64,000 nucleotides of DNA. It comes from Candidatus Nealsonbacteria bacterium. GTDB taxonomy: Bacteria; Patescibacteriota; Minisyncoccia; Minisyncoccales; RBG-13-36-15. Positions 2,883 through 48,705 of the stretch are shown piece after piece. Made by a program: the position numbers and the translations under genes. Where the stretch lies: the NCBI GenBank assembly GCA_011050465.1, contig DRFQ01000009.1, positions 128,334 to 192,333 on the forward strand. The letters run 5' to 3'. Under the pieces are notes generated by a model. The model was not told the DNA's origin. It did no database searches and was given only the letters and a program-made list of their open reading frames with translations. Every line of letters begins with the position of its first letter. The first letter of the stretch is position 1.

Positions 2883-3162
2883 TACAAAGAAATTCTGAAA
2901 AAACTAAAATCACTCTCTAACAAAAAGGCGGTGGCCGGAATGTCGCGATTCGGGATTAATCCGAAAAATACTTTGGGTATTTCTGTTTATATTATATGAG
3001 GTATCGCAAAGAAAATTGGGAAAAGAAATATAAATTTGAACAGGAAAGCAATTAAGGCAGCCGGAGATTCAGAGAATAGATTCAAAAAGCGCCAAATGGA
3101 TAGCTTCTGATGCAATCAGAGAGTTAACAAGTAAAGCAGTTCAAAAAAGACTGCGTAAATAA
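2883..3162 (+). pseudogene. remnant of a DNA alkylation repair (AlkD-like HEAT-repeat) protein
   Basis: YKEILKKLKSLSNKKAVAGMSRFGINPKNTLGISVYII ends at a stop (2997-2999). In another frame, AKWIASDAIRELTSKAVQKRLRK ends at the trxA ATG. No start codon, and the middle of the gene is missing. Confidence 0.55.
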
Positions 3163-5488: not shown

Positions 5489-5501
5489 TTGTGCGACATT
5501 T
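5489..5501 (+). repeat. TTGTGCGACATTT 13-mer copy
   Basis: The same 13-mer occurs at 25500-25512 and, reverse-complemented, at 36940-36952. Confidence 0.8.
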
Positions 5502-6914: not shown

Positions 6915-7871
6915 TTATTCTTTTAGATTTTTGCCGCTGTGAAACTTGCGATGAATATCACGGAGACGTTTATTTGTTACATGGGTATATACTTGGGTTG
7001 TAACAATATTTCTATGGCCCAAAAACTCCTGAATGCTTCTTAAATCAACGCCCTGGCTTAACAGATCTGTAGCGTAAGAATGCCGAAGGGTGTGGGGGGT
7101 AGTAAAAACGGGGACACCGGCCAATACGGCGTATTTTTTTACGATTCTCTCTATGGACCGAGGCGTTAAACGACTCTCTGCATCTTTTCTGGCCCTATAA
7201 TGAATAAATAAGGCCTTTTCTTTGTCTTTTCGGGTATCCAGATATTTTTTAATCCAGGACAGAGCCCTTTCTGAAAAATAGACTGTTCTGGGATGGCTTC
7301 CTTTGCCAATAATACTAAGTTCTAAATCCTTCTTATCTCTTATATTAACAAATTGCTCTTGGTTAAGGGCAACTAATTCAGCTATTCTTAGGCCTGTTGA
7401 GAAAAAGGACTCTAAAATAGCCTTATCCCTTAAGCCAATAGTGTCTTTTAACTTGGGAGTTGTTAAAAGCTTCTCAATTTGCTCCAAATTAAGGAATTTT
7501 ACGGTTTTTTCCTTGCTGGCTGTCTTTGGAAGACCTATTTTATCTGCGGGGAGTGAAGCTATGTCTTTAGCTGTAAAATAGCCCAGAAGGGCTCTCAGGG
7601 CGATTAAATAGTAGTTCTGGGTGACTTTCTTGAGAGACTGGCCCTTATTGCCCTGAAATCTGGAAAGATAAAGTCTATAAGTCCAGATATCGTCAGCAGT
7701 CAATTCATGGGGTCTCAAATCCGCCTTTTTGGCTCCCTTAAGCCACGAAACAAACTTCCCAAGGTAATGCTTATAATTTTCCTGGGTTTTGTCTGCTAAA
7801 CCTTTTTCAACTTCGCAATAATCTAAAAAATCGGGAATATGTTTTAAAATTGGTTTATCTGATTGTTTCAT
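6915..7871 (-). CDS. tyrosine site-specific recombinase (XerC/D-like)
   Basis: C-terminal HTLRHSYATDLL...LGHRNIVTTQVYTHV (R-H-R-Y catalytic pattern) and an N-terminal SAM-like domain. Confidence 0.9.
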   Translation of the reverse strand: MKQSDKPILKHIPDFLDYCEVEKGLADKTQENYKHYLGKFVSWLKGAKKADLRPHELTADDIWTYRLYLSRFQGNKGQSLKKVTQNYYLIALRALLGYFTAKDIASLPADKIGLPKTASKEKTVKFLNLEQIEKLLTTPKLKDTIGLRDKAILESFFSTGLRIAELVALNQEQFVNIRDKKDLELSIIGKGSHPRTVYFSERALSWIKKYLDTRKDKEKALFIHYRARKDAESRLTPRSIERIVKKYAVLAGVPVFTTPHTLRHSYATDLLSQGVDLRSIQEFLGHRNIVTTQVYTHVTNKRLRDIHRKFHSGKNLKE

Positions 7872-8119
7872 ATCGCAATAGATTAACCGGCATTATTAGA
7901 GGAGTTTTTTAAGCCCGTATAATAATGTCGCTTTACCTACATTGTGCGACTATCTCTACCTCTATAATAAACGGGGCAAAAGGCCTTGTCAAGTGCTCCC
8001 CTATAGGTTTATATATAAAGTATTTTAGAAACAAAAAGTCAGCTTAATAAGCTGACCTTGATCCTCCTCTTTTCTTTACGACGTCGAGATATATTTGACA
8101 TTGTTTTTGGGTCCAATCG

Positions 8120-14347: not shown

Positions 14348-14785
14348 TTAATAATCTAATTTATTGATCCAATCCGGAACTTCGGCATCGGTGACGGCAT
14401 CATATTGCGGCGTATATGGTTTGATATCAAGAATTGGGGTATCTTTGACAACATCGAGACCTTGTACGGTTACAACATTATCTTTAATGCCGATAATCTT
14501 TACTGTTGAGACGCCAATCGGGTTTGGTCGCTGGGCACAGCGACAGGCAAAAATTCCGACTTCTGGCACCTCGCCCACTTTATCTTGCGGTACATGGCGG
14601 ATATCGCAAGTTTTAACTTCGTGCATCCAATAAATCACGATAAGATGAGAATAATCCTCCAATCCCTTCAAAGCTTTTTGATATTTCTCATCAATAACCA
14701 AATCAGTAGCCACCTTATCCCATGATCCAAAATGTTGCTTTTCCTGGTTTTTAGCAAAGCCAATCGGCTTTAATTTAATTTCCAT
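14348..14785 (-). CDS. trmO: tRNA methyltransferase TrmO/TsaA (YaeB family)
   Basis: RPNPIGVSTVKI and LDIKPY motifs. Confidence 0.85.
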   Translation of the reverse strand: MEIKLKPIGFAKNQEKQHFGSWDKVATDLVIDEKYQKALKGLEDYSHLIVIYWMHEVKTCDIRHVPQDKVGEVPEVGIFACRCAQRPNPIGVSTVKIIGIKDNVVTVQGLDVVKDTPILDIKPYTPQYDAVTDAEVPDWINKLDY

Positions 14786-18363: not shown

Positions 18364-18867
18364 TTATGGGATTTCTAATTGGTTAGTTATCCAGCTAATA
18401 CATTTCGGAATATAAATGTCTCTAATATGTTTTTCTAATTTTCCTCCTGAGCAAAAAAAGATATTGTCAATTTTAAAAAATTCAGGATACTTTTTGCATG
18501 TCTCTTCTTTGATTTTCATTTCTTCCTGGACTGCCTTTGTTCCACTCTCCTTCAACCTCCTTTCCCACTCTTCTTCTAATTTATTATACTTTTCATCACA
18601 CCACGATTGAAATGGCGACCTATAATCCATCAGGCCTCCTTCTATTATTTCTTGCATTAATTCCTCAGCATTCTTCAATTTTTCTTGAAGCTCAGCCATT
18701 CTCTGAGATTCTTCTTTTGTAATAGTTCTTGGTTTTTGAAAAACATCAGAGATACTGGCCGTAGAAGAAGTAAATATGTCCAGCTGGTACACAATAATCC
18801 CTAAAAGTATAATGGTAGCTAAAGTTGCTATTATGAATGGAATTTTAGTAAAATTTCGTTGTTCCAT
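18364..18867 (-). CDS. membrane-anchored hypothetical protein (167 aa)
   Basis: N-terminal TM helix and a charged coiled region. Confidence 0.55.
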   Translation of the reverse strand: MEQRNFTKIPFIIATLATIILLGIIVYQLDIFTSSTASISDVFQKPRTITKEESQRMAELQEKLKNAEELMQEIIEGGLMDYRSPFQSWCDEKYNKLEEEWERRLKESGTKAVQEEMKIKEETCKKYPEFFKIDNIFFCSGGKLEKHIRDIYIPKCISWITNQLEIP

Positions 18868-19102
18868 TTCATTTTATGTTTTTTTATTATCCTCTACTCC
18901 CTCGGGCATAGTCCCATGGGACTCACGACGGTTTTTATACCTTTTGAAACCCTTAATAGAGTTTAGATCGTCTTTATCTATTATCTTCCCCTCGAGATTC
19001 TTAACACAACAGGGTATCCTAACGCCATGCGGGGCTTGGACGACGTTAGAACCTGGTATTTGGAGAATTGTGAGGGAGGTAAGGGTGTCGGTTTTAACTC
19101 CT

Positions 19103-21423: not shown

Positions 21424-21451
21424 ACATTCTCATATTCTCAAGAATGTTGGA
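21424..21451. promoter_or_regulatory. candidate ArsR operator copy A
   Basis: ACATTCTCATATTCTCAAGAATGTTGGA with inverted repeat ATATTC-TCAA-GAATGT. Spans the ArsR stop and the gap before the ATG at 21416. Confidence 0.4.
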
Positions 21452-21743
21452 AGGTTATAATAAAATTGCAGAACACTTTACCATAAGGCGACAGTGTATG
21501 AATAACCATACGACCCTGATATTTTTTATTTAGAAGCCCAGCTTGGACTAACCGACGAGTATGTTCGGAAATTGTTTTAATATTGCACTCAAGCGCTTCA
21601 GCAATTCCTTCAAGAGTAATCCCCTCTGACTCGCCGACTAAAATAAGGATGGCTATTCTCCGATGGTTAGCCACGCCCTTAAAATGCCTTTCCAATTGCT
21701 TTGCTGTTTTTGCTATTTTTGCTGTTTTTGTCGTTTTTGCCAT
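21438..21743 (-). CDS. ArsR-family winged-helix transcriptional regulator
   Basis: ANHRRIAILILV...ISEHTRRLVQAGLL. Start moved to ATG 21743 (TATAAT-N7-ATG). Confidence 0.8.
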   Translation of the reverse strand: MAKTTKTAKIAKTAKQLERHFKGVANHRRIAILILVGESEGITLEGIAEALECNIKTISEHTRRLVQAGLLNKKYQGRMVIHTLSPYGKVFCNFIITFQHS

Positions 21744-21772
21744 AATCTTCATTATATTAACACGATATCATG

Positions 21773-24869: not shown

Positions 24870-24888
24870 CCTGAGCTTGTCGAACGGG
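24870..24888. repeat. GC-rich mini-repeat (partial copy)
   Basis: CCTGAGCTTGTCGAACGGG. Confidence 0.6.
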
Positions 24889-24907
24889 CTCCTCTGGCTG
24901 GACGTAT

Positions 24908-25462
24908 TTACAATCCAAGATCTTTATTAATTTTTTGCATTGCTTGAAGTCCAGTTTTAACAAATTCCTCTAACTTTATATCAAGTAATCCTTCGGATTG
25001 CTTAATAATTTCCCTATTTATCCCCCTGGCAAAAGCCTTCTCTTTAAAACGGTTTAAAACATTTTCTACAGTTAAATCTGTTATTTTTTTTGATGGTAAA
25101 ACTAATGTTGCCGCGACAATCAAACCAGTTAAAGGATCAATCGTAAAAAGGGCCTTGTCCATTGGAGCTTCTGGCTGAATCCCGTGAATTTCATTATGAA
25201 CCTTTACTGCCTGGCAAATTTCTTTACTTAATCCTGCCTCTTCAAGCATTTGAGCTCCAACTAAAGAATGCTTATTTGGATCATCTTTAGTTTTTTCATA
25301 ATCAATGTCGTGTAATAATCCGGCTATCCCCCATTGATCCTCATTTTCTCCAAGTTGGCGAGCCAAAGCCCGCATTACAGCTTCTACTGCCAAGCAATGC
25401 TTAATTAAATTTTGATTATCAAGATTTTGTTTTAATAATTCTAAAGCTTGATCTCTGTTCAT
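24908..25462 (-). CDS. HD-domain phosphohydrolase
   Basis: HCLAVE...LLHDIDYE. Confidence 0.85.
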   Translation of the reverse strand: MNRDQALELLKQNLDNQNLIKHCLAVEAVMRALARQLGENEDQWGIAGLLHDIDYEKTKDDPNKHSLVGAQMLEEAGLSKEICQAVKVHNEIHGIQPEAPMDKALFTIDPLTGLIVAATLVLPSKKITDLTVENVLNRFKEKAFARGINREIIKQSEGLLDIKLEEFVKTGLQAMQKINKDLGL

Positions 25463-25498
25463 GTTTTACTCTTAACGGCTCCACGACGCTTTTTATAC

Positions 25499-25512
25499 CT
25501 TGTGCGACATTT
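25499..25512 (+). repeat. left copy of the 14-bp inverted repeat CTTGTGCGACATTT
   Basis: Its exact reverse complement lies at 36940-36953. Confidence 0.85.
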
Positions 25513-25560: not shown

Positions 25561-27534
25561 TTATTCTAAATAGTCCTTGATCCATTCGATAAGAGTGGGG
25601 GGATCTTTCTTTTGGCTATAAATATATAGTTTTTTCTTTACTCGCGTGATAGACACTATAAATTGGCACAAAAGTTCATTTGTCACCTTGTCTTCATTAA
25701 AATTTACGAGAAAAACATAATCCGCACTAAGCCCTTTTGATCCCAGCGGATTAACAATCTTAATAGAAATATCTTTGTGACCCTCTTTACGAACGTTACT
25801 TCCCTTTATTTCCTTTTTTAATTTATTAAAAGCAATTTCAGAAGGATTATAACTAAACTGATTGAGGATAAATTTTCTTTCCTCATCGTTTATTTTTATG
25901 TTGTCATTAATCTTCTTTAATATTTTTAATACTTTCTTAATCTCACTTTGAATAGTTTTGGGTAATAGACTTCTAAAAACATCTTGTTCTGATTTGCTCT
26001 TCACGATGATTCTTTTAAATTCGGCTGATTTCATCTTGTCCTTAGACAGGATTCTCCAACCAAGATTGCGATCACTGTCCTTTAAAAGAAGCTCGTACCC
26101 CTCCATTTTGATATCATCTTTTCTTTTATTCTGAATATTCCTAAAACCTTTCTCGCGAAGATAATTTTCCATTTCATCTTTTTGCTTAGGAGATCCATGT
26201 GCACAAATTATTAATACAGAAAAATTTCTATCTCGTTCAAAAATCTCCTTAATATCCTTATCAATAAAGAAATCTACCCTCTGTACTTCTCCCCTATAAG
26301 AGATGTTTTGGTATTTTTTAGATATTGCATCTTTTTCTTCTGAACAAAAATACTCAAATCTTTTAGGAATCCTTTTTTTTAGAAATCCCCCTTTCTCGGC
26401 CTTAGATATGAGAGTATTAACAGAATCTATTATTACTTTTGGACAACGAGAACAAAAAGGAAGGGAACGATAAAAATAATTACTTTTAAAATTAAGGCAT
26501 CTAGAACGTATTTCTTCTGGATAAGCGTTTTTAAAATCATAAAGTGATTGATCGTCATCACCAACTATCAGAATCGGGCTTTCATCAGCTAATAAATCTA
26601 ACAATTTTATTTCTAACTTATTAAAATCTTGGAATTCGTCGATTAATATTTGAGAATATTGAGGTATTTCTTTTTTGTCTTTTTCGAAATGCTTTATTAA
26701 ATCGTAGACAGCACAACTCGGACCAATACAGTCATAGTATTTTCTTCTTTTAAAATAAAAAGCTAAAGCTTTAGAATTATTTCTATCCAATAAGTCATTA
26801 AAAATATCCTTAAAGGAAATCTTTCTCCCCTCGATAATATTAAAGTCCTCGCTTATAACATCCGCTATTTGCATAAAAACTTCGGGTTTCTCTGTGGAGC
26901 CTGGGAATAATTCATTCATAACAAAGCTATGCAATGTCCTTACATCGGCCAACTGTCCTAACCCAAACTTTAAATCATTCACTAATTCATTAATGAAGGT
27001 CATGATAAGGTTGTTATCATTTTCTTTCTTTTTACAAACCTTCTCAAACAAGAAAGTTTTTCCTGTTCCGGGCCCGGCCGCAACAACTATTTTAGGTTTA
27101 CTTGATATAATTATTTCATCGGTATGTATTTTTCTTTCTGCTTGATATAAAATTCTTCTCGAAACTTCAGGAGTAAGCCTACTTATAGTTTCTTTAAAAG
27201 TAAACCAATTTCCTTTCTTCTCTACTTTCTGTTCTTTTATTTTTTCACTTTCTGGCACTTCAGATAAATAGAAAAGAAAAAAGTGTATTGTCCTTGAAAT
27301 AGCAGAATCATCTTGATCTACTCTACCAATTTCTCCTTTGCATTCTATGTGGGCATAACCTGTTTTGTGCCTAATACTCTTTATGGCAGTTCCTTCTATG
27401 TTTATCAGATCGGTGTCGCATTTGACTCTGTCACCAATGAGTGACCACTCGTTATTACTTTTTCTCTGAATCAAATAATATTTTCCGTCACTAGGAGACC
27501 AAAGAACACTGACTATAAAAAACTCTTTCTTCAT
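25561..27534 (-). CDS. Nudix-like N-terminal domain fused to a UvrD/PcrA-type SF1 helicase
   Basis: First about 130 aa: Nudix-fold-like with a degenerate box (GDRVKCDTDLINIEGTAIKSIRHKTGY). Then AAGPGTGKTF (motif I), ILIDEFQDFN (II) and IVGDDDQSLY (III). Confidence 0.8.
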   Translation of the reverse strand: MKKEFFIVSVLWSPSDGKYYLIQRKSNNEWSLIGDRVKCDTDLINIEGTAIKSIRHKTGYAHIECKGEIGRVDQDDSAISRTIHFFLFYLSEVPESEKIKEQKVEKKGNWFTFKETISRLTPEVSRRILYQAERKIHTDEIIISSKPKIVVAAGPGTGKTFLFEKVCKKKENDNNLIMTFINELVNDLKFGLGQLADVRTLHSFVMNELFPGSTEKPEVFMQIADVISEDFNIIEGRKISFKDIFNDLLDRNNSKALAFYFKRRKYYDCIGPSCAVYDLIKHFEKDKKEIPQYSQILIDEFQDFNKLEIKLLDLLADESPILIVGDDDQSLYDFKNAYPEEIRSRCLNFKSNYFYRSLPFCSRCPKVIIDSVNTLISKAEKGGFLKKRIPKRFEYFCSEEKDAISKKYQNISYRGEVQRVDFFIDKDIKEIFERDRNFSVLIICAHGSPKQKDEMENYLREKGFRNIQNKRKDDIKMEGYELLLKDSDRNLGWRILSKDKMKSAEFKRIIVKSKSEQDVFRSLLPKTIQSEIKKVLKILKKINDNIKINDEERKFILNQFSYNPSEIAFNKLKKEIKGSNVRKEGHKDISIKIVNPLGSKGLSADYVFLVNFNEDKVTNELLCQFIVSITRVKKKLYIYSQKKDPPTLIEWIKDYLE

Positions 27535-27539
27535 ATGTT

Positions 27540-28193
27540 TTAATTACGAGATTTTCCTGTACGGGTTCTATAATAACACCACTTACAGTTGTTTGGGTCT
27601 TCTTTCGGAGTAGATCCATTTAGAAGTGCAGAAACCGCTGATATAAAAGAATAAAACCCCTTCATATCTTCCTTTATTTCAAACCAATGTGGCTTTGTCT
27701 TAAAAATAACATCATCTCCAGGAAATAAAATTTCCTCTGGACTTATAGCAACAACACCCATTTTACTCACCTTCCTTGGAGAACCAATTTCTGGATTTTC
27801 TAAAGAAAATTTGTATGCGTGTAATTGAGGAAAAAACTTGTTAAGTTTATCTTCACCAGGATTGGTTATCTTAAAGTCAATAACCGCATGCGTTCCATCC
27901 TCTAAACGAGAAACTATATCAAACCTACCGCTAATATAACAATCATCTGTAGGAGGTATGGGTTTTGATTTCAGAAATCCTTCCTTTACTTCAATTTTTC
28001 CTGCTGGCAATCCAGAATTAATCTCTCTTAAATCCATCCCAATAATCGCGTTTTGCAACAACGAATTCATTTTTGTAAAAACTCCTGGCATTCCTATCGA
28101 TGGAAGAGATACGCCATATTTTATCTTTTGGTAATAACAATACTTACAATCCTCGTAAAGATACTTAAAGTCAGATGGACTTAATTTAAACAT
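27540..28193 (-). CDS. Cas4/RecB-like PD-(D/E)xK nuclease with four Cys
   Basis: CKYC near the N-terminus, GRFD, VIDFK, QLHAYKF and C-terminal CKWC. Confidence 0.8.
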   Translation of the reverse strand: MFKLSPSDFKYLYEDCKYCYYQKIKYGVSLPSIGMPGVFTKMNSLLQNAIIGMDLREINSGLPAGKIEVKEGFLKSKPIPPTDDCYISGRFDIVSRLEDGTHAVIDFKITNPGEDKLNKFFPQLHAYKFSLENPEIGSPRKVSKMGVVAISPEEILFPGDDVIFKTKPHWFEIKEDMKGFYSFISAVSALLNGSTPKEDPNNCKWCYYRTRTGKSRN

Positions 28194-28225
28194 AATTTTA
28201 TTTCTTAATTAATTCTTTAACTTTG

Positions 28226-28504
28226 TTATTCTCCAAATCCAGCGCGCTTCATTTTCTCATTAATCGTTCTTTTCTCGCCCGGCAACCGCACCTTCACTAC
28301 TGGACGACCATATGATTTTCCTATCTCCTGAATATAAACCTGCTCTTCCTCTATCATTTCCCTTAATATCTCTTTCGCTTTCTTATAACCTCTTTGACCT
28401 TTTTCTGGCGCATATACTTCAGCAAGGCGATAAAATTGTCCTCTCGGGCCCTGAAAAGTATCTCCATCGCGAACTTTTTTAACGGTGATTTTTTTCATAG
28501 CCAA
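28226..28504 (-). CDS. miniature SNase (thermonuclease)-like protein
   Basis: KVRDGDTF...YRLAEVYAPE resembles the DGDT...RL.GIDTPE core, but the protein is only 92 aa and the catalytic set is incomplete. Confidence 0.4.
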   Translation of the reverse strand: MAMKKITVKKVRDGDTFQGPRGQFYRLAEVYAPEKGQRGYKKAKEILREMIEEEQVYIQEIGKSYGRPVVKVRLPGEKRTINEKMKRAGFGE

Positions 28505-28620
28505 TTATTAACTTTGGTTAATTATATCTTCGACCTTATATTTTATACCAAACAAAAAAAGGGGTCAAACCCTTTCTTAAGTTAAATTTCCCTCGACTTT
28601 GAGCTAAATTTTAGTTATTT

Positions 28621-29001
28621 TTACTCTCGGCTATACCATTCGTCTTCCTCGGATATTTTTGAAGGATAAAAATCGAGTTGTTCTGCCGGAATACTTAATT
28701 TAAACGCACCGAAGGCACGTGCTTCCTGCCAGGTGGATTTGTTATTAGGATCGATATTAAAAACTTTATCTTTAAAAATCACAATTAAATCTTTTCCCTC
28801 ATCATAAATGTGAAAATAATCAGGTCTATCCCCTATCATTGCATTCTGAATTTCTTTTATAGCGTCTTCTACCGGTTCTGTAATTTCAACGATATGCAAA
28901 TGCCAATTCTGCCTTTCTGAGAACTTCGTTCTAAGAATTCTATAATTCTCTAAAATTCTTGGATTTTCTAAGCTTTCCTCAATGATTATAGAGTGATACA
29001 T
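28621..29001 (-). CDS. hypothetical protein (126 aa)
   Basis: GAGGGA SD; sits in an operon with Dam. Confidence 0.5.
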   Translation of the reverse strand: MYHSIIIEESLENPRILENYRILRTKFSERQNWHLHIVEITEPVEDAIKEIQNAMIGDRPDYFHIYDEGKDLIVIFKDKVFNIDPNNKSTWQEARAFGAFKLSIPAEQLDFYPSKISEEDEWYSRE

Positions 29002-29041
29002 AAATTTCCCTCAATTTCGGGCTAAATTTTGATTAAAATAA

Positions 29042-29887
29042 CTATCGAGCTGCAGTTTTCGCTCTTGAGATTGAATCAGAAAAAATCATCAACTCGCGAG
29101 CCTTTCTAATCTTGCAAGAATCATAGACACTATACTTCAAACTAAGGCGTTTTCTCATCCTGTCGGGATAAAATTCTCTGATTTTTTTTACTTCATCGTA
29201 AGTCAATACCCAATTATAGTTAGTATTTGTATTTAATAAATCGGCGAGTTTCTTGTGATCATCCTCTTTATAGTGATTGAGATATAACATTGCACCCTTT
29301 TTAAAATATGGGGGATCTAAGTAAATAAAAGTGTTATTTCTATTTAAATATCTTCTCGTAAGTTGTATTCCATCTTTATTTAATACTGAAATACGGTCTT
29401 GAAATTTCCCAATCTTGCGAACCCGTAAAGCCAGTTTTTTCTTATTGTATCGCATATTTATTTTGTACGGACCGTCTTGATTCTTTCCCCCAATCGGCCC
29501 CGCATTCATTACGCCAGATCTATTAGTTCGATTAAGGAAAAAAGTGGCGAACCCTTTTTCAAAAATATTGGCATTCTTATTTAAATAAATTTGCTTTTGT
29601 TTTTTCCATTCAGTAATAGTCACTGGAGTCGTTATAATTTTCTGCGCAAATCGTTCTGAATTCTGGGTTACTGATTTCCAAAATGCATAAATCGTTTTGT
29701 CTAGATCATTTATGACTATTTGCCTGACCCTATTGTCAAACAACAAAGTTAAGGCTACCCCTGCGCCACCCGCATAAGGTTCGACGTAGGTCGGTTTATC
29801 CAAACCAATGGCAACCAAAATTCTTTTAAGCTCGTCTGCTAAAAATGTTTTACCTCCGGGATATCTTAATGGAGAATAAAATTCCAT
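29042..29887 (-). CDS. Dam-family (D12 class) N6-adenine DNA methyltransferase
   Basis: RYPGGK N-terminal motif and IYLDPPY catalytic motif. Confidence 0.9.
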   Translation of the reverse strand: MEFYSPLRYPGGKTFLADELKRILVAIGLDKPTYVEPYAGGAGVALTLLFDNRVRQIVINDLDKTIYAFWKSVTQNSERFAQKIITTPVTITEWKKQKQIYLNKNANIFEKGFATFFLNRTNRSGVMNAGPIGGKNQDGPYKINMRYNKKKLALRVRKIGKFQDRISVLNKDGIQLTRRYLNRNNTFIYLDPPYFKKGAMLYLNHYKEDDHKKLADLLNTNTNYNWVLTYDEVKKIREFYPDRMRKRLSLKYSVYDSCKIRKARELMIFSDSISRAKTAAR

Positions 29888-29894
29888 ATATAAA

Positions 29895-31331
29895 TCACCC
29901 TCTATTAATAATAAGAGATACTTTGATGTTCTTCAGTCTATCGTGGGTAAATGCTCTTTCTAGGGTAGAGTGTTTTTTAATCTTTTTTTCAGGATCATAG
30001 ATAAAGAAATAGATTCTTTTACAATCCGGACGTCTACTGTACTTAACTAAATCATCGTTCAATTCTTTCTCGATATTTTTTCTTATGCTTTTGTCGCCAC
30101 CTTTTCTTTTAAGAGTTGTTTTTACTTCAATAATAGTGCCGTTATCAAGAAGCAAGAAATCGCCTCTTGATGGCGAAGCTCCGTCTGAAGGATTCCATAC
30201 TTCATTCTCTACATCATCAAAAAACATAGTTAAAAGTGCGTGTAATAAATCTTGTACGTCATATTCATCGCCCATATTCAATGTTTCTCTATTCTTATAT
30301 CTATCTTTCAATTGTTCAGCAACAGCATCAAAATGGATTAAAACATGATCGACTATCTCTACCGCCTCTTGGAGTGGATACTTAACTGAGTTCCGTCGTC
30401 TTCTCAGTTTTAGACTTGGAATATTAGGACTTCTTCTTTTGCTTTTCTTTTTTTTCCGTAGCTTCGTTTTAGGAAACTTGATAGGATCTATTTTAGAAAA
30501 TACATTATCTAATAAATAATCTTTTGTAGCTTGTGCGGGTATCTTTTTCTCTCCAACAATATATGGGAGTAATTTCTTCAGATTACTTTCAGCATTTTTT
30601 CTATTTTTAAAGATGATATTCCCTTTATCGTCGATTAAATAATCAATTAGTTTTTTACCGTTTGCGCTTATAATTAACCTTTCAATTGTATTAAATCCTG
30701 TTTTGAGTAACTCCTCTTCTTTTTTTGCGCCCTCAACCTGGTCTAAAATGTATTCGTAGAAATATAATTTGCCTAACTCGTCTTTAAACTTTGCAGTAGT
30801 AGTCCCATATTCCTTAGAGGCGGAATCAACAGTATATTCACCCCCGTCTATCAAATTTCTGTACATTCTTAATCTCTGTAGAACTTGCCACGGTTTTAAG
30901 AGTTGGTTTACGTGAATATCCCAAATTTCCTTTTCTGCTTCTTTACGCGAGGGCGCAATAGTAATCTTTACACTTTTAAGTTGTCTTTTATTAAGAATCT
31001 TACCTAAACCTTCTAATTCCTTTTTGTTCCGTGCACCAGGGGCGAGTTTAGGATTTAATAGCAACTGACAAGCAGCTAATCTCCTATTTCCATCTAATAC
31101 AATTGATTCCCCATTTTCTTCACAAATAATAGCCACAGCGCTCCTGTGGTAACCATTATTAGCAATACTTCTAGCTATCATCATTACACCTTCTTTTTCT
31201 AAAAGATAATTACGTACTTGATTGACATCTTTTAATTCTTTTACGTGTTTTGGCACCCGAGGATTTTGCAAATCCAAGCTTAGTTCACTTATAGATACTT
31301 TTTTATCACGCCATTGTTTTTTTGCATCCAT
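29895..31331 (-). CDS. ParB/Srx-like N-terminal domain fused to a C-terminal PD-(D/E)xK-like nuclease domain
   Basis: IVLDGNRRLAA (ParB-N). C-terminus has DEYDVQD...RGDFLLLDNGTIIEVK (D...ExK). Confidence 0.65.
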   Translation of the reverse strand: MDAKKQWRDKKVSISELSLDLQNPRVPKHVKELKDVNQVRNYLLEKEGVMMIARSIANNGYHRSAVAIICEENGESIVLDGNRRLAACQLLLNPKLAPGARNKKELEGLGKILNKRQLKSVKITIAPSRKEAEKEIWDIHVNQLLKPWQVLQRLRMYRNLIDGGEYTVDSASKEYGTTTAKFKDELGKLYFYEYILDQVEGAKKEEELLKTGFNTIERLIISANGKKLIDYLIDDKGNIIFKNRKNAESNLKKLLPYIVGEKKIPAQATKDYLLDNVFSKIDPIKFPKTKLRKKKKSKRRSPNIPSLKLRRRRNSVKYPLQEAVEIVDHVLIHFDAVAEQLKDRYKNRETLNMGDEYDVQDLLHALLTMFFDDVENEVWNPSDGASPSRGDFLLLDNGTIIEVKTTLKRKGGDKSIRKNIEKELNDDLVKYSRRPDCKRIYFFIYDPEKKIKKHSTLERAFTHDRLKNIKVSLIINRG

Positions 31332-31359
31332 ATAATTATATTTTAATTTTATCTATCAA

Positions 31360-31530
31360 TTAACTCTTCAAGTTTTTACGATTCATGTGATAACGCATTT
31401 GTTCTCTGGTTCTCATGGTTTTTTCATCGGCAATATCAACCTTACCACATTTTGGGCATTTTTCCTTACAAACAGGACAATAAAACTCTCCGCACTTCTT
31501 ACATTTTATTTGCATAAATTGATGTGGCAT
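31360..31530 (-). CDS. 56-aa zinc-ribbon protein (below the track cutoff)
   Basis: MPHQFMQIKCKKCGEFYCPVCKEKCPKCGKVD... has three CxxC pairs. It lies 28 nt upstream of the ParB-fusion gene. No clear SD. Confidence 0.4.
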   Translation of the reverse strand: MPHQFMQIKCKKCGEFYCPVCKEKCPKCGKVDIADEKTMRTREQMRYHMNRKNLKS

Positions 31531-31592
31531 ATTGAGCTGAATTTGTCGCTTTTTGTGCCTTGCGCGACGTTTTTAGGCTAAATTTTAGTTAT

Positions 31593-31883
31593 TTATACAC
31601 TCAAACCAGCTTCTTTTCTAAAGGCTGGACGACTACATGCTAAAGAAGGGCTATATTTATAGGCCTTCAGGTGATGTTCAATGACTTCTTCTTTATTTTT
31701 TTCAAACCCGCCATATCCCAATAGCTTTTTAACAGCCAATTCTTCTAAAGATGAAGCAATTTTCCTTTGTATGGTCCAATTTACATTGTATTTTTTCCAA
31801 AGACTGACATCCTTCCATTTAAAAAATTCAAATTCTTCTTTTGTAAGCCGCGGGAATTTGTAGTTATACTTAGCAATTTTCAT
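31593..31883 (-). CDS. hypothetical protein (96 aa)
   Basis: 14-nt gap after the upstream gene. Confidence 0.5.
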   Translation of the reverse strand: MKIAKYNYKFPRLTKEEFEFFKWKDVSLWKKYNVNWTIQRKIASSLEELAVKKLLGYGGFEKNKEEVIEHHLKAYKYSPSLACSRPAFRKEAGLSV

Positions 31884-31897
31884 AAATTTGAGTTATT

Positions 31898-32842
31898 TTA
31901 GCCTAAACGTCGAATATACTCTTTGAAAGCTCTCTCTAAACGAATCATTGCATCAATCATTTTGTCTTGTAATTTCTCCCAATTTTCTTTATCGTTCAAT
32001 CCTTTCCCCTTAAATTTAATAGAAATTCGGGACGCACGAGCATTATCTAATCTTTCCCAATTTAGTCTTCCCTTAAACTTTTTTTCAATTTGATTCTTAT
32101 GTTTATATAATTTATCGAAACGAATTTTATTAATATTTGGCTTTATATAATCCTTACCTTTATCAAAATATATTTCACAACCACCGTATTTTTTTGTTAT
32201 TACGTAGCTGTAAATTATCCCTTGTTTGCCAGCACCGGTCCCAATCCAAGAATAAATACCGGGAGTAATATTTGAATGTAAAGATGTCTTTCCTTTAGCT
32301 TTTTCTAAAAGTGCTGTCCAAAATTCTTTTCTTAAAATGTGTCTTTTAGCATATTCCTTTTTCTTTTTACCAATAGTCTCAGACCCTTCTGATGGCCCGG
32401 CGATAATGGAAAATTTGGCAGCCGGATTGGAATTTCCTATTTTGTATGCTTCTATTTGTACTAAATAAAAAGCTGTCTCTGGGCCAAATTCATTCAACCA
32501 GTCAATTGCTCTTTCGTGCTCCTGCCTAGGGTTACTTGATATCCAGATAGCAATTTTTGCATCTAAATTTGCTAGATAAGTTAAAATTTTACCCAAATGT
32601 TCATGGTTTGTTTTCTCTAATTGATTTTCTATAACTACTTTCTGTCCGTTTTCGTCTTCTGCAATGATATCCACAGAAAAAGAACCCGCGTCACCTTCTC
32701 TGTCAATGGCTGTTAAATCCATATCTAATTCTTCTCCCAAAATTTCAATGTTATCGAAAAGCCAAGAGGTGAAATCTCTAGCTTCATTCTTCCAAACTTC
32801 CCTTAAAGGAACTTTTTTTATTCTTTCTATATGCTTTTTCAT
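31898..32842 (-). CDS. DUF4268-type protein with an N-terminal PD-(D/E)xK-like module
   Basis: FSVDIIAEDENGQKVVIENQLEKTNHEHLGKILTY pattern. Confidence 0.65.
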   Translation of the reverse strand: MKKHIERIKKVPLREVWKNEARDFTSWLFDNIEILGEELDMDLTAIDREGDAGSFSVDIIAEDENGQKVVIENQLEKTNHEHLGKILTYLANLDAKIAIWISSNPRQEHERAIDWLNEFGPETAFYLVQIEAYKIGNSNPAAKFSIIAGPSEGSETIGKKKKEYAKRHILRKEFWTALLEKAKGKTSLHSNITPGIYSWIGTGAGKQGIIYSYVITKKYGGCEIYFDKGKDYIKPNINKIRFDKLYKHKNQIEKKFKGRLNWERLDNARASRISIKFKGKGLNDKENWEKLQDKMIDAMIRLERAFKEYIRRLG

Positions 32843-32878
32843 GATTTTATTTCTAAATTAATTCTTCGATTTTTTCTT

Positions 32879-33736
32879 CTAAGCCGGGCAGTAATTTGAA
32901 AGCACTTTCTTATAACTATTCGTGTAGTTTTCGCTCTTTCTGAAATATTTTCTATCAACTGTCCCTTCTTTTATGTGATATTCTATCCCTTTCTCCTCGC
33001 AGAATTTTATAACTCTGTAGGCGCAATCATTGTAGAATGTTTTGTAACTATCAAAATAAGTAGTCAAGGCATTATAATTCCATCTACCGAAAACTATTTT
33101 ATCGACAAAAGCTATTTTTTCCAATATTTTGGTTAGATCCTGTTCAATAAGGTTAGGCGTAGGATAAGGTTCCATACTTACCCAAGTTTTCAAACCTTTA
33201 TTATGTAAGAACTTAAGGGTTTTTACTCTTTTTTCTATCGACACAGCGAATGGCTCTTTACTTCTTCTGAATTTTTCAGACAAAGTGATTATAGTCGAAC
33301 CGTATTCATTATCCCTGCCGTAAATATTTTTTTTAGTCAAAATTTTAGGATATATACCTTTACTTATAGTTACCACTTTTATATTGTCTTCATTCAATCT
33401 TTTGATAATTTCTAAGCTAAGATCTACTACTTCTTTTTGTTTATACATAAAAGGGTCTGTCGAAAAACACAAGTAGACATATTTTATATCTTTTTTATAT
33501 TTCGGAATTTCTAGATCTAATAATTCTAAGGCGTTGCTAACAATTTTAGGTCTTATCCATTCTTTGTAATTTTTAATGATCCCACACCTTTTTTTCATCA
33601 GCATTGCATAGCAAGGATAAGTACACCCATGAGAACATCCCTCAACGTGATTAATGCAATAATCAGCGTATTCTACCCCGCTTTTATATAAAAGAGATTT
33701 TCTAATGATTCTCTGCATACTATTATTATATATCAA
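32879..33736 (-). CDS. radical-SAM-like protein with a non-canonical Cx3Cx3C motif
   Basis: INHVEGCSHGCTYPCYAM, versus the canonical Cx3Cx2C in the paralog 22932..23717. Overlaps the upstream gene by 11 nt. Confidence 0.65.
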   Translation of the reverse strand: MIYNNSMQRIIRKSLLYKSGVEYADYCINHVEGCSHGCTYPCYAMLMKKRCGIIKNYKEWIRPKIVSNALELLDLEIPKYKKDIKYVYLCFSTDPFMYKQKEVVDLSLEIIKRLNEDNIKVVTISKGIYPKILTKKNIYGRDNEYGSTIITLSEKFRRSKEPFAVSIEKRVKTLKFLHNKGLKTWVSMEPYPTPNLIEQDLTKILEKIAFVDKIVFGRWNYNALTTYFDSYKTFYNDCAYRVIKFCEEKGIEYHIKEGTVDRKYFRKSENYTNSYKKVLSNYCPA

Positions 33737-34616
33737 AAAGAGCCTTCTGTGGATTTCTCGCCCTGAAGACTTTGGTTTTTTTCTCCCAGAATTCGATCCC
33801 CCTTTCGTGTTTACTGAATAAAATTAAATAATATAAGGAGGTGTTTTTAATATTTTTAAATATGACCAGTGACGGACTCGAGAAATAACCCAAACCTTTT
33901 ATCATATCGATATAATTCTTACATAAATTTCTGATATTTATTTCTTTACTATTTCCCCAGGTTTTTTTATTAGCAATGTCTTTCCATCCAGGATGGAACT
34001 TATCTAATTTCTTAGAATTTAATTTTCTAATTAAGGCAGCAGAAACCGCTCTTTCAACAGAAGCTATTGGGTAATTCACTATTAAGTCTATCTTCCTTTT
34101 TGCTAATTGTTTGTAAGAACTGAAATGAAATTGCAAACTGTCGGGATCTATAACGGCTAAACTTAAAGAATTATCAGAAATAGATTTTTTTATAATGTTT
34201 CCTATAGCCAAATTACAGTCTTCGTTATAATATTCTACACTGTTTTTTTCTTTTGCTCTTTGTTTTAAGCTGTTTATACAGACTGGATTTTTGTCTATTA
34301 AAAAATATTTTGTAAATTTATTCTTTAAATTTATTGCCTCTAGGCAGGTTCCATCTATTTCTTTTAATCCCTCTCTAATAATACACTTTCCTGGGCCCGA
34401 AAATAAATCTATATAATAAAGTTTTGGCCATTTCTTTTTCATCGCCCCCGAAAAAATATCAATGAAATATTTCAAATGTTCAATTTTATCCTTTGACCAA
34501 TAACCGGAACAACGCAAAGCCAACCCGTCATTTTTAGATTTATATTTTTGACATATTCCATCGTTATTATTTACGCAATTACCGTTTTTATAAAACTTAC
34601 ATTTTTTCATAATCAA
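33726..34616 (-). CDS. TcmP-like (three-Cys-motif partner protein) candidate
   Basis: YWSKDKIEHLKYFIDIF...KLYYIDLFSGPGKC fits the remembered W.x.K...L..Y...Y(I/V)D.F(A/S)G.G pattern. Has an extra Cys-rich N-terminus. Confidence 0.55.
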   Translation of the reverse strand: MIMKKCKFYKNGNCVNNNDGICQKYKSKNDGLALRCSGYWSKDKIEHLKYFIDIFSGAMKKKWPKLYYIDLFSGPGKCIIREGLKEIDGTCLEAINLKNKFTKYFLIDKNPVCINSLKQRAKEKNSVEYYNEDCNLAIGNIIKKSISDNSLSLAVIDPDSLQFHFSSYKQLAKRKIDLIVNYPIASVERAVSAALIRKLNSKKLDKFHPGWKDIANKKTWGNSKEINIRNLCKNYIDMIKGLGYFSSPSLVIFKNIKNTSLYYLILFSKHERGIEFWEKKTKVFRARNPQKALFDI

Positions 34617-34688
34617 AAAACCGTCCTAATGAGTGACCTCTACTCTGTTCAATTTTCTGTAATTTAATTTTCTTCATTTTCCATAATT

Positions 34689-35777
34689 TTATTTTCCAGA
34701 TTTAGTTCGATTGTCTTGTTTACACAACATCTGGCAATTCTCTGAAATAGTTTTTCCACCTTCATGCCAAGGCTTTATGTGGTCAGCTTCCATTTCTTCT
34801 ATTTCGAAATACTTCTTGCATTTTGTGCAGACACCTTTTTGTCTCTCATACGCCTCTCGTTTCATTTTGTCAGTAAACGCGCGTATTGAGAGATATTTTT
34901 CTTGTCTAGTCAATACATAAGGGTAAATGCCTGGTTTTTTCGTTACGTCTTCATCTTGCATTAATTCAGCAATCTCGGTTTCTAGTTTATCGACACTTAG
35001 TTTTTTGTCTTTGAATTGATTGTATGGTTCACCCCATTGCACGCTCTTCATCTCTCTGCGATAATTCGTGAAAGTCTTCCTCACCCACGCTATTACATTT
35101 TGGAAATAGTCCCACAGCTCGTCGGCATTCATGTATTGTTGGTGTTTGGCCATGTAATCTTCAATTTTTCCATAGTTGATCCACGAAAGAACAGTTTCCA
35201 AATATTCTTGTCGGATTGGTTTACCGCTGACTAATTGCCCACCGTCATTTGCCAGCAGATACGCAGCGCAGTTTGTTTTGCTAAATTTTAATTTAGCGTC
35301 GGAGAGCCATGGTCCAGTGTAAACTGCATTCCTCAGTTCTTGGTCGGTCAGTTTTTCACCGGCGATATTGATAATTCTAAACCAATCAAGGCGTTCTTTG
35401 TCTGTGCCCTCGCAGATGTAAATCATGAGCTTATAATCCAAAATCTGTTTTTTTTCTTCGCCAGTTAAGTTGTGGAAATAGAGATTATCCAGTGAAAAAT
35501 CTCCGTTCACATATTGCCCAATGCTAATGGTGCGCTGTTGACCATCAAGCATCTCAAAACAATTTTTGTTTTTCAACCAATACATTACATTGAGTGGAAA
35601 ATTCTTGCGTATGGATTCGATAACTTCTTTGCGTTGTTTATCGTTATAGATAAATTCACGTTGATATTTTGGGCGAATATCGAGTTTATCACCATAAGCC
35701 ACAACACCTTCTTCGGCACTGTCTTTGTAGTCCTCGATCACTTCGCGTATTGAAATTTGGTGTAGTTTAATTTTCAT
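34689..35777 (-). CDS. DUF262 (GmrSD N-terminal, ParB-like) domain fused to an HNH endonuclease
   Basis: IRPKYQREF and LDGQQRT (DUF262). C-terminal CTKCKK...ADHIKPWHEGGKT...NCQMLCKQDNRTK (HNH). Confidence 0.85.
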   Translation of the reverse strand: MKIKLHQISIREVIEDYKDSAEEGVVAYGDKLDIRPKYQREFIYNDKQRKEVIESIRKNFPLNVMYWLKNKNCFEMLDGQQRTISIGQYVNGDFSLDNLYFHNLTGEEKKQILDYKLMIYICEGTDKERLDWFRIINIAGEKLTDQELRNAVYTGPWLSDAKLKFSKTNCAAYLLANDGGQLVSGKPIRQEYLETVLSWINYGKIEDYMAKHQQYMNADELWDYFQNVIAWVRKTFTNYRREMKSVQWGEPYNQFKDKKLSVDKLETEIAELMQDEDVTKKPGIYPYVLTRQEKYLSIRAFTDKMKREAYERQKGVCTKCKKYFEIEEMEADHIKPWHEGGKTISENCQMLCKQDNRTKSGK

Positions 35778-35786
35778 ACTAATTCT

Positions 35787-36830
35787 TTATTTTTTATTTT
35801 TAATTAAAATGCGCGCGTAGATTTCTTTGCCGTCTATCGTAAACCTTTTTCCGTAATTTGGATTGTCTTCGACATACCTGTCTATGCCGATAATCTCAAA
35901 CTGCTTGGGATTATATTTATCAACAAATGTAATTGGAACACCCATTACACCTTTGTAGTCCATTGGAATATCAACATACCGATTTATATTGATAGCATCA
36001 TAGTCGTCATACTTGGGATATTCTTCTGAGCTGTACTTTTTATACAAAGTAAGTTCTTCGTGACGTTTTGTTGTATCAAGATTTGTAAACCACGCGATAT
36101 TGCCCATGCTAAAATATTTCACACCATCTTCAATTTTTATTCTCGACTCAGTTTGTATGTCATAGTTCTCGGGAACTTGAAACCACTTTGTGCCGCCATT
36201 GTCATATCCAAGCCATAACCTATTTTCTTTAATTAGTTTGAAAATTTCTTTGTACGTAATGGCGTTTTGATTACCAAGGATCAAAAACTTTCTGTTGTAT
36301 TCCATAAGTTGCTCAACGTATTCACGAAATAGTGAAAACGGGGGGTTTGTTACCACTATATCAGCTCGTTTGAGCAGTTCTGTGCACTCATCGCTTCGAA
36401 AATCACCTTCTCTATTTAAGGGGGTTGCGGTGTTTTTGTCGTGCTTTAGTAAATACTTTACATCGTCGAGGTTTACCGCACCATCGCCGTCGATATCCGA
36501 CACTTCTTTGATTTCGATTTTGAACGGCTCCTTGCCCGTCGGCTTTAGTCCTTCCACCTCAAACAGTGGCAATTGCCCGCCGGCAATCGGCGATTTAACA
36601 TAACTCGTAGTGATGAGTTTTGTTAACCCCAGCGCGTTGAAATTAGCAGCAAAATACTTAAAGAAGTTGCTCTCGAACGGATCATCGCAGTTACAGTACA
36701 CAACTTTACCACGGAATTGGTCCTTGTAGTGCTTCGCCTCTTTTTCAATATCAGAAAGCTGCGTATAAAACTCGTCTTTCTTTGCTTTGTTTGCTCTAAG
36801 GAAAGATGTATTTAAAGATTTAGTTTTCAT
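35787..36830 (-). CDS. EcoRI-methylase-like N6-adenine DNA methyltransferase
   Basis: DEFYTQLSDIEKE...YCNCDDPFESNFFKYF and DIVVTNPPFSLFREY. Confidence 0.8.
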   Translation of the reverse strand: MKTKSLNTSFLRANKAKKDEFYTQLSDIEKEAKHYKDQFRGKVVYCNCDDPFESNFFKYFAANFNALGLTKLITTSYVKSPIAGGQLPLFEVEGLKPTGKEPFKIEIKEVSDIDGDGAVNLDDVKYLLKHDKNTATPLNREGDFRSDECTELLKRADIVVTNPPFSLFREYVEQLMEYNRKFLILGNQNAITYKEIFKLIKENRLWLGYDNGGTKWFQVPENYDIQTESRIKIEDGVKYFSMGNIAWFTNLDTTKRHEELTLYKKYSSEEYPKYDDYDAININRYVDIPMDYKGVMGVPITFVDKYNPKQFEIIGIDRYVEDNPNYGKRFTIDGKEIYARILIKNKK

Positions 36831-36905
36831 AAGGTTATTTTAATTAATCTACCTTAATTTTGCCACTTTTGGATTATTTTGTCTATTTATCAAAGATCTA
36901 AATAC

Positions 36906-36935
36906 TCGACATTTGTCGACATTTGTCGACATTTT
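36906..36935. repeat. three 10-bp-phased TGTCGACA palindromes (iteron/operator-like)
   Basis: TCGACATTTGTCGACATTTGTCGACATTTT, 76-105 bp upstream of the methylase ATG. Confidence 0.8.
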
Positions 36936-36939
36936 CTTG

Positions 36940-36953
36940 AAATGTCGCACAAG
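36940..36953 (-). repeat. right copy of the 14-bp inverted repeat
   Basis: Plus strand reads AAATGTCGCACAAG, the reverse complement of 25499-25512. Confidence 0.85.
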
Positions 36954-36994
36954 ATGCGTTATGCGACGCACATCATGATTATACGTATCAGGGA

Positions 36995-37027
36995 AACAAA
37001 AAAGGCCTCTGGCTGGTGCCTGAGGCT
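36995..37027 (-). terminator. T1-family terminator (cassette a)
   Basis: Minus strand reads GCCTCAGGCACCAGCCAGAGGCC plus a T-run. The 30 nt at 36999-37028 are identical to 37464-37493. Confidence 0.8.
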
Positions 37028-44688: not shown

Positions 44689-45207
44689 TCAATGATTCAC
44701 CGCTCTTAACGTTTCCTCTTCTAATCTAGAGATAAGATCTTGATTAGCGTTAAAAAAGTAGCGATGTGTCCTTCCTTCTTTTTCTATGCGAATCAAATTT
44801 GCTCTCCGAAGATTACCCACCATTCCCCAAACAGACCTTCTGGTTAAGTATCTTGCTTCGGCAATATCTTTTATGGTACAGCCAGGGTTTTTTATAATAT
44901 AAAGCAGAGTGAAACCTTCTGTGGTGAAAAATTGGCGTTCGGGAGAATTATTGTCTGCATTTTGTATAATATCTAAAGGGTTACGGCTGGCAGAGTGATA
45001 GTGTTTTCTACCTATTTTTTCAAAAGATATATATTCCCCTTGAATTAAGAGACATGTATGGTCAAAAAATCCCCAGACAGTTCGTCTGGTCAAACCCAAG
45101 GCATCGCCAATCTGAGAAACTGTTGGTTCTTCTCCTTTTTGATTTTTTTGTCTAATAAAAAAGTAAACCGAACCAACGGTTGACAGAAGCCGAATATCTT
45201 CTCCCAT
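44689..45207 (-). CDS. tandem winged-helix (HTH) DNA-binding protein
   Basis: Two repeats: VSQIGDALGLTRRTVWGFF and IKDIAEARYLTRRSVWGMVGNL. Confidence 0.7.
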   Translation of the reverse strand: MGEDIRLLSTVGSVYFFIRQKNQKGEEPTVSQIGDALGLTRRTVWGFFDHTCLLIQGEYISFEKIGRKHYHSASRNPLDIIQNADNNSPERQFFTTEGFTLLYIIKNPGCTIKDIAEARYLTRRSVWGMVGNLRRANLIRIEKEGRTHRYFFNANQDLISRLEEETLRAVNH

Positions 45208-48623: not shown

Positions 48624-48705
48624 AAATTCCTACGAATTACGCTGTCGCATTGAGCGACTCCCCGGAGGGTTAATTAATACGAATATACGAATAGAGGATG
48701 AACGA

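Follow-up and report, generated by a model that had tools for sequence, protein, structure and literature searches.

What does a tyrosine recombinase gene have in common with defence-like operons that lie elsewhere on the same bacterial chromosome? The question is raised by a 64-kb stretch of a Candidatus Nealsonbacteria contig (DRFQ01000009.1; the window, meaning all 64,000 nucleotides analysed), in which a spaced inverted repeat, or dyad, of the form TGTCGC-N14-GCGAC stands in front of the recombinase gene and in front of operons of a putative defence island. A sequence-only reading of the window had grouped these dyads with a set of short palindromes nearby, and had ascribed them all to one DNA-binding protein, acting at either a controller-protein-like operator or a recombinase arm site. 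We propose instead, with a probability of roughly 70%, that the dyads are core sites of the recombinase itself, an enzyme of the Xer family. The copy beside its gene would be the dif site of the lineage, and the other copies would be att-like junctions.

A dif-type site beside the xer gene

A pattern scan of the window places TGTCGC-N14-GCGAC dyads at 7926-7950, 31544-31568 and 36943-36967, within one base of the positions first given for them. Their occurrence is not random. When the spacer of TGTCGC-N-GCGAC is allowed to range from 0 to 30 bases, five matches are found against 0.09 expected, and three of the five have a spacer of exactly 14. Three exact copies of GTCGC-N14-GCGACA compare with about 0.03 expected, and a fourth N14 copy with one mismatch, overlooked in the first reading, is present at 25485-25509. 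Aligned, the four copies (named A to D below) share a left arm GTCGC-RCAA and a right arm WWAW-GCGAC around a 6-bp centre that is different in each: TGTAGG in A, GGTATA in D, GGCACA in B and GATGCG in C. This 9-6-9 pattern, GTCGCRCAA-N6-WWAWGCGAC, is matched with at most one mismatch by exactly four sites in the window, every one of them intergenic, while shuffled sequence yields 0.03 matches even at up to two mismatches. Judged by their inner arms, A, D and B lie on the minus strand and C is inverted. Copies of different architecture at 48643-48658 (N5), previously counted as a short-loop version of the dyad, and at 14527 (N8, inside the TrmO gene) were set aside as unrelated hairpins.

Xer sites consist of two imperfect inverted arms of about 11 bp around a 6-bp centre (11-6-11; PMC2958812). 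The dyads, with two inverted arms of 9-11 bp and a centre of 6 bp, are best read as core-type recombination sites on which a recombinase would dock, a layout that speaks against the arm-type site suggested earlier.

The candidate enzyme is a Xer-family tyrosine recombinase of 318 amino acids (6915-7871, minus strand) with Pfam Phage_integrase and SAM-like N-terminal domains. Its NCBIfam scores are 216 bits for XerD, 213 for XerC and 187 for XerA, each under the equivalog cut-off, and it scores 110 bits with the XerS model. Full-length alignment with E. coli XerD (1A0P) shows that all six catalytic residues (R, K, H-x-x-R, H and Y) are conserved. Archaeal XerA (4A8E) is likewise similar over its full length, with the catalytic residues conserved. 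Its relatives with E<=1e-60 number at least 7516, and an identical protein in NCBI carries the label Candidatus Nealsonbacteria. Site A, GTCGCACAA-TGTAGG-TAAAGCGAC (7927-7950, minus), lies 55 bp upstream of its start codon.

The association between this site and xer extends well beyond the window. A scan of a genome collection, taking one genome per species and GTCGCRCAAKGNNNNNNAAGCGWC as the query, matched at least 120 loci. The high-GC matches look like chance, since they have random spacers and fall inside coding sequence. In contrast, at least about 35 low-GC loci carry an almost invariant GTCGCACAATGTAGGTWAAGCGAC, identical to site A. They are labelled as Paceibacterota, Nealsonbacteria, Saccharibacteria, Moraniibacteriota and 'Patescibacteria group', together with two DPANN. 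In 25 of the low-GC loci among the matches listed, the site is followed after 9-616 bp by the start of a co-oriented gene for a recombinase orthologous to that of the window (67-81% identity). Across the Patescibacteria the general form of site A is GTCGCACAA-TGTAGG-TWAAGCGAC with A/T flanks. In 20 aligned sequences the arms of the 24-mer are unchanged and only centre positions 3-5 vary, and none of the five predicted pairs covaries. Invariant arms without covariation indicate sequence-specific recognition by a protein rather than an RNA structure; no Rfam family matched near the site in 18 loci. The earlier suggestion of one shared protein site linking the island with the recombinase is supported. 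The two DPANN-labelled bins with a site of the type found in the candidate phyla radiation (CPR) are L016 (labelled Pacearchaeota), where a 71%-identical xer adjoins the site, and L081 (labelled Woesearchaeota). Their presence would be explained by CPR contigs that were binned wrongly, or by transfer between the groups.

The position of the site suits a replication terminus. The window contains one canonical copy, as does each of the 8-21-kb loci. Left of approximately 7 kb the GC skew of the window is +0.10 to +0.18, and to the right it is negative; the cumulative skew reaches its maximum at about 8 kb, and gene strand changes from plus to minus at 6.8-6.9 kb. With the site used to set the orientation of the other loci, the DNA upstream of it has positive GC skew and plus-strand open reading frames (ORFs) in 20 of 21 scorable loci, and the skew of the DNA past xer is negative in 19 of 22. 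Convergent replichores that meet at a conserved inverted repeat beside a Xer gene are the signature of dif. A hand alignment with the sequence of E. coli dif matches site A at 17 of 28 positions, including CGCAyAATGTA. We consider it very probable that in this lineage site A serves as dif, with the enzyme encoded at 6915-7871 as the Xer that acts on it. No description of a dif/Xer system in Patescibacteria was found in the literature searched.

The surroundings of the site also recur. A sigma-70-like promoter, TTGACA-17-TATTAT (7964-7992, minus; 11 of 12 consensus positions), leads into xer and reads through site A. A block comprising GGGGAG, TTGACA, a small hairpin, TATTAT and TAGATATA is kept upstream of the site in other CPR loci, with the GGGGAG a few bases 5' of the -35 element. 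The hairpin, at 7993-8020 (minus) in the window, stands between the -35 TTGACA and the -10 TATTAT. Its stems vary yet stay complementary (ACAGGCC..GGCCTGT, ACACCGTG..CACGGT and ACATGG..CCAT), with counterparts in L007, L014, L026, L067, L076, L078, L084, L122 and other loci. On the far side of xer, a lone perfect left arm, AAATGTCGCACAA, followed by TATTAA, is found at 5489-5500 (minus), and AAATGTCGCACAATATTAA likewise occurs downstream of xer in L290, L291 and L292. The wider neighbourhood varies between related genomes. In another Nealsonbacteria genome, CP179887 (L291/L292), ftsW-murG-gltX lies no more than about 2 kb upstream of dif/xer, while in the window it is about 38 kb from dif, which indicates that the dif-proximal region is highly plastic.

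Single Xer genes linked to a terminus dif are described for XerS/difSL of streptococci and lactococci and for XerH/difH of Helicobacter and Campylobacter (PMC1914069, PMC3325230). The window system resembles these in that xer is gene-linked to dif and that two inverted arms surround a 6-bp centre. It departs from both in the sequence of the site, which is common to a whole superphylum, and in the placement of the site, which lies past the xer promoter and ahead of the start codon. Unlike the XerS system, its recombinase fits the XerD, XerC and XerA models best. The 11-6-11 layout is that of XerCD/dif in E. coli and XerA/dif in archaea, although in E. coli xer does not adjoin dif as it does here. 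Further, the outer arms of the window site form a perfect palindrome (GTCGC/GCGAC), unlike those of XerCD/dif, which would suit a homomeric enzyme.

Sites at module boundaries and in phages

The remaining three sites are associated with two modules of defence genes. Site D, GTCGCACAA-GGTATA-AAAAGCGTC (25485-25508, minus), lies 23 bp upstream of an HD-domain gene, at the junction between the HD/PyrB operon and module 1. Site B, GTCGCGCAA-GGCACA-AAAAGCGAC (31545-31568, minus), marks the junction between modules 1 and 2, and lies 13 bp upstream of a 56-amino-acid zinc-ribbon ORF (31364-31531). Site C, GTCGCACAA-GATGCG-TTATGCGAC (36944-36967, plus), is inverted relative to A, B and D, and forms the junction at which module 2 gives way to the following chromosomal gene; its right arm, TTATGCGAC, is of the type found in viral contigs. 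Module 1, from D to B (25561-31531, minus), encodes the zinc ribbon, a ParB-N/DpnII-MboI protein, a Dam (D12) methylase, a 126-amino-acid protein, an SNase-like protein, a PD-(D/E)XK nuclease and a UvrD-like helicase. Module 2, from B to C (31593-36830, minus), encodes an EcoRI-family methylase, a GmrSD_N-HNH protein, TcmP, a DUF5131/radical-SAM-like protein, a DUF4268 protein and a 96-amino-acid protein. Neither module contains a recombinase gene, and the GC profile shows no sharp step at B, C or D. The sites are not confined to island operons, as the original description had it; one fronts the HD/PyrB operon.

The window as a whole is a stretch of Patescibacteria chromosome (GC 36%) whose genes include L27, UppS, thioredoxin, DUF5671, CysS, PyrB, Obg, GltX and a MurG/FtsW cluster, and identical window sequence is contained in marine-sediment metagenomes. 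Within module 2, TcmP (the three-Cys-motif partner; 33726-34616) adjoins the DUF5131/radical-SAM-like protein (32879-33736), with the methylase and the GmrSD_N-HNH protein upstream and DUF4268 downstream, a composite defence-like operon.

One strain-level break coincides with a site. L210, a contig of 2.4 kb assembled from a different sample, matches the window at 99.5% identity over 24878-25504 and then becomes unrelated, with recQ upstream. The homology ends at the junction between the left arm and the centre of site D. The recQ partner junction is absent within 10 kb past the right end of the window and about 3 kb past the left end. As a separate observation, a promoter-like unit AAACTCTATTAAGGGyyTCAAwA-GGTATAAAAA-sCGTCGTG is repeated in this DNA. 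One copy lies at 18925-18975 (minus), upstream of a 167-amino-acid gene (18364-18867), and related copies stand before the HD gene in L210 (1700-1790). Site D resembles this unit with its left part exchanged for a Xer left arm.

Similar secondary sites are found in other CPR genomes. Sites with up to two mismatches occur in five CPR loci of the dif scan (223 kb in total) against about 0.1 expected, and there are none in 677 kb of methylase control loci. In L026 the secondary site flanks a C5-methylase/Vsr pair, in L106 a secondary site and dif enclose a Schlafen/AlbA_2 gene, and in L027 a two-gene module lies between an inverted pair of sites. Centres recur among these sites: GGTATA or GGTGTA is found in window site D, L026, L035, L106 and L027, and GATGCG in window site C, L027 and CP179888. 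In the last of these, a Nealsonbacteria genome, AAATGTCGCACAAGATGCGTTAT precedes a LexA-methylase gene by 72 nt. Such fusions, in which LexA DNA-binding, Peptidase_S24 and N6_N4 methyltransferase domains share a single ORF, are unusual; we noted them in L058 (1995-3689) and in L290, which is CP179888 (18000-19454), both in the variable region near dif.

The sites also occur in phages. The pattern is matched by 44 viral contigs, with 33 distinct low-GC sites reading GTCGCACAA-TnTAnn-TTATGCGAC. The viral sites are non-coding and adjoin terminase and portal genes; integrase domains were found in 2 of the 93 ORFs within 3.5 kb of them, a count that describes the local flanks and not whole phage genomes. 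With dif they have in common only the left part of the centre (T-n-T-A), and the attP sites of Xer-exploiting elements likewise match dif only in the left part of the centre. A C-rich or G-rich tract precedes the left arm of many phage sites by 10-25 nt (L223, L225, L238, L240, L250, L254 and L256), and extra half-arms lie beside some phage and CPR sites (L220, L218, L027 and L058). In CP179888, phage genes for a tail tube, NUMOD3 and SLT extend up to a hybrid site, TTCGCACAA-TGTAGG-TAAAGCGAC, which immediately precedes xer; the xer promoter conserved elsewhere is gone. One of the two phage junctions is seen, at this hybrid dif.

These features recall two known kinds of Xer-dependent element. 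The first are the integrative mobile elements exploiting Xer (IMEX), such as CTXphi, TLCphi and the gonococcal island. Like these, the sites described here are dif-like with good arms and partly divergent centres, and include elements without a nearby integrase; the phage genes abutting the hybrid dif in CP179888 and the match of viral sites to only the left centre of dif are further points of likeness. Unlike IMEX, the window modules are 17-29 kb from dif and lack phage genes, and the candidate viral carriers appear to be tailed (terminase, portal) rather than filamentous. The second are the pdif (dif) modules of Acinetobacter, described as bounded by Xer sites (PMC7399989, PMC12907356). The window similarly contains discrete modules bounded by Xer-type sites, with adjacent modules using a common site, and the B(-)/C(+) and L027 pairs are inverted as Acinetobacter pairs are. 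However, D(-) and B(-) are direct repeats, the modules are chromosomal and carry defence genes instead of plasmid-borne resistance, and they were not found elsewhere with flanking sites (80 methylase and 4 DpnII/Dam loci).

Several points weigh against the proposal that the dyads are Xer core sites with A as dif and B, C and D as junctions. The placement of the terminus relies on local skew (8-20 kb), not on whole-genome skew, and the coordinate of xer in the 'complete' records CP179887 and CP179888 is uninformative because such records need not begin at the origin. L210 is possibly chimeric, being a short-read contig of 2.4 kb with its junction in a repeated promoter-like element. No dif-like sites accompany the methylase homologues in 80 loci or the DpnII/Dam homologues in 4 loci. 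No two of the four centres are alike, so the sites are not expected to recombine with one another by the standard two-step route. The inversion of C with respect to B and D agrees neither with simple serial integration nor with the strictly alternating order of Acinetobacter. Nor is this a classic IMEX at dif, given the distance of the modules and the housekeeping genes CysS and PyrB in between. Finally, each site precedes the first gene of an operon by no more than about 115 bp, and the co-oriented A, B and D by no more than about 55 bp, a placement near operon starts that would suit operators just as well. Taking these points together with the module boundaries, the L210 break and the counterparts in other genomes, we judge it somewhat probable that B, C and D are junctions of Xer-mediated rearrangement.

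The TGTCGA array upstream of the methylase gene

The palindromes that had been grouped with the dyads form a tandem array beside site C (36904-36931). Three TGTCGACA palindromes had been reported at 10-bp spacing. The spacing and tandem arrangement hold, but only two copies are exact (36914-36921 and 36924-36931), and the third, ACTCGACA at 36904-36911, is imperfect. Tandem Repeats Finder describes the array as 2.9 copies of a 10-bp unit, TCGACATTTG, with 100% match at 36906-36934. As first noted, it lies 76-105 bp upstream of the ATG of the EcoRI-family methyltransferase (36830, minus). It stops some 8 bp short of the left arm of C and is just upstream of weak candidate promoters for the methylase. 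In the same interval, a terminator-like hairpin, GCCTCAGGCACCAGCCAGAGGC followed by TTTTTTG, closes a 130-amino-acid gene (36996-37020, minus), and a TATAAT box (36983-36978) and then site C come after it. The methylase may have a promoter of its own that reads through site C and the repeats.

The array is probably not a further copy of the dyad. The two have only TGTCG in common, and in the array the invariant fifth base of GTCGC is altered. We tentatively regard it as a separate, helically phased, putative protein-binding array, which could be an operator or accessory sequence for the methylase promoter or for site C. Candidate binders encoded in the window are the Xer protein, a tandem winged-helix protein (44689-45207) and an ArsR-like protein (21438-21752). 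The main alternative, which we hold somewhat less likely than not, is that the array arose neutrally by replication slippage as a 10-bp tandem duplication, its likeness to TGTCG being coincidental. This would agree with a perfect tandem repeat of only 2.9 units, and with the absence of the array upstream of 80 methylase homologues and near dif-like sites elsewhere, both in other CPR and in viral loci. Against slippage, copy number is constant, with no variation in copy number or otherwise among six same-strain contigs, and there is a second TGTCGA cluster in the window, which the first reading did not mention. This cluster, two copies of TTGTCGAAT and one of TTTGTCGAG (2819-2859, plus), stands upstream of a TATAAT box and the thioredoxin gene, and has the same gene-relative orientation and the same gene-proximal variant, TGTCGAG, as the methylase array. 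A Poisson estimate gives about 0.004 for two clusters in 64 kb. The thioredoxin cluster may be part of the same system as the array; no TGTCGA clusters were found in the other low-GC loci. Between this cluster and thioredoxin, a short ORF starting ATGTCGCGATTCGGGATTAATCCG and the frames that follow it (2937-3160) resemble, on visual inspection, what is left of an AlkD-like gene for DNA-alkylation repair, presumably a pseudogene.

Phased TGTCGACA arrays of 3-5 copies in several viral contigs also tell against slippage, although the viral scan count of 19, roughly estimated, does not clearly exceed what a 16-base pattern would give by chance. In the phage contigs L273, L283, L272, L274 and L276 (GC 0.33-0.41), 3-5 copies of TGTCGACA at 10-bp spacing lie beside a TTAGAATCATTCTAA palindrome, and in L268 and L278 a similar array is found at the end of a primase-polymerase gene. 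The viral arrays may be replication origins. They are accompanied by no dif-like sites, and their contigs have no proteins in common with the window.

Operators, recombination sites and the CPR mobilome

The strongest competing explanation for the dyads is that they are operators, bound by a transcription factor or by Xer as a repressor only, which co-regulate xer, the defence operons and HD/PyrB, and that B, C and D never recombine. Its appeal lies in the position of the sites, each of which is inside a promoter-like element or closely follows one, near a first gene. Site A follows TATTAT by 13 nt, B is separated by 13 nt from the preceding TAAAAT and by another 13 nt from an ATG, C follows TATAAT by 10 nt, and in D the centre together with the right arm spells GGTATAAAAA, which resembles a -10 box. 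A, B and D are also co-oriented relative to the downstream gene, and a centre that recurs across genomes (GGTATA) could reflect promoter function. In contrast, the canonical copy behaves like dif, with its terminus position and its linkage to xer in 25 other loci among the matches listed. Viral copies lie beside packaging genes and not at promoters of homologous genes, the L210 homology breaks at an arm/centre junction, and the hybrid site in CP179888 abuts phage genes. Moreover, no regulator gene co-occurs with the sites. We consequently consider the operator explanation unlikely in this exclusive form, though regulation and recombination are not mutually exclusive and can coexist at these sites.

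The specific version put forward by the sequence-only reading, a controller-protein operator, finds no support. Palindromic repeats upstream of a methylase in a restriction-modification-like module do recall the operators of controller (C) proteins. Unlike in C-protein systems, the dyad is found also at xer and at an operon unrelated to restriction-modification, and 80 homologous methylases have neither the dyad nor the TGTCGACA repeat. No C-protein or helix-turn-helix (HTH) gene was found in or beside the modules; the 130-amino-acid protein, the 96-amino-acid protein and all other module proteins gave no match to an HTH family.

That the dyads act as RNA, forming hairpins in 5' untranslated regions (5-6-bp stem, 12-14-nt loop) that control mRNA stability or translation, is highly improbable: A, B and D would be sense-transcribed from adjacent promoters and RNAalifold draws a 5-bp stem, but the stem is short and the loop long, all five pairs are invariant in the 20 sequences with no compensatory change, the 18 loci gave no Rfam family, C is inverted relative to its gene, and intergenic phage copies occur in varied contexts.

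Other candidates were rejected. For a LexA/SOS box, the literature search gave no matching Patescibacteria motif and the comparative data pointed elsewhere. Alternative-sigma promoters, including extracytoplasmic function (ECF) -35/-10 elements, were judged by reading to be inconsistent in spacing and downstream distances. As integron attC sites, the dyads are too short and the cassettes would be too large. Attachment sites at tRNA or tmRNA genes are at odds with the lack of a tRNA in the window or L210.

If the dyads are core sites of the window Xer, as we propose from the layout, conservation and context of their sequences, each 9-bp arm (11 bp with the usual A/T flanks) would bind one recombinase monomer, and strand exchange would take place in the 6-bp centre. 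At site A, the recombinase would resolve chromosome dimers at the terminus, a reaction that depends on FtsK in many bacteria. With site A between the xer promoter and the start codon, the bound recombinase probably represses its own gene. Sites D, B and C would have been left behind by Xer-mediated insertion or rearrangement of defence-gene modules, and the divergence of their centres would prevent recombination with dif.

We speculate further that Patescibacteria might run a recombinase-free mobilome on a single housekeeping Xer. In this scenario, which we offer as a tentative possibility, tailed phages would integrate at dif via GTCGCACAA-N6-TTATGCGAC attP sites, and small modules of defence and accessory genes would be inserted, inverted and exchanged at secondary Xer sites, grouped into classes by their centres (GGTATA, GATGCG and others). 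Some of these sites overlap promoters. The terminus would thus serve as a Xer-driven cassette platform, with the 24-mer marking it in thousands of CPR genomes.

The proposed Xer/dif of this lineage would be an addition to the Xer/dif family, with a periphery that resembles both IMEX and dif modules. Patescibacteria, with genomes of approximately 0.6-1 Mb, are mostly known from fragmented metagenome bins. A near-invariant 24-mer beside xer would mark their replication terminus, and so would help in orienting and closing their genomes. Further, our data point to the host Xer as a route by which phages and defence genes are acquired in these tiny genomes. Elements that take this route would be missed by integrase-based finders of prophages and islands, because they would carry no integrase of their own. 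Xer is known to be exploited mostly by filamentous phages and by a small number of genomic islands. Tailed phages on the same route, if true, would widen the range of phages that exploit Xer.

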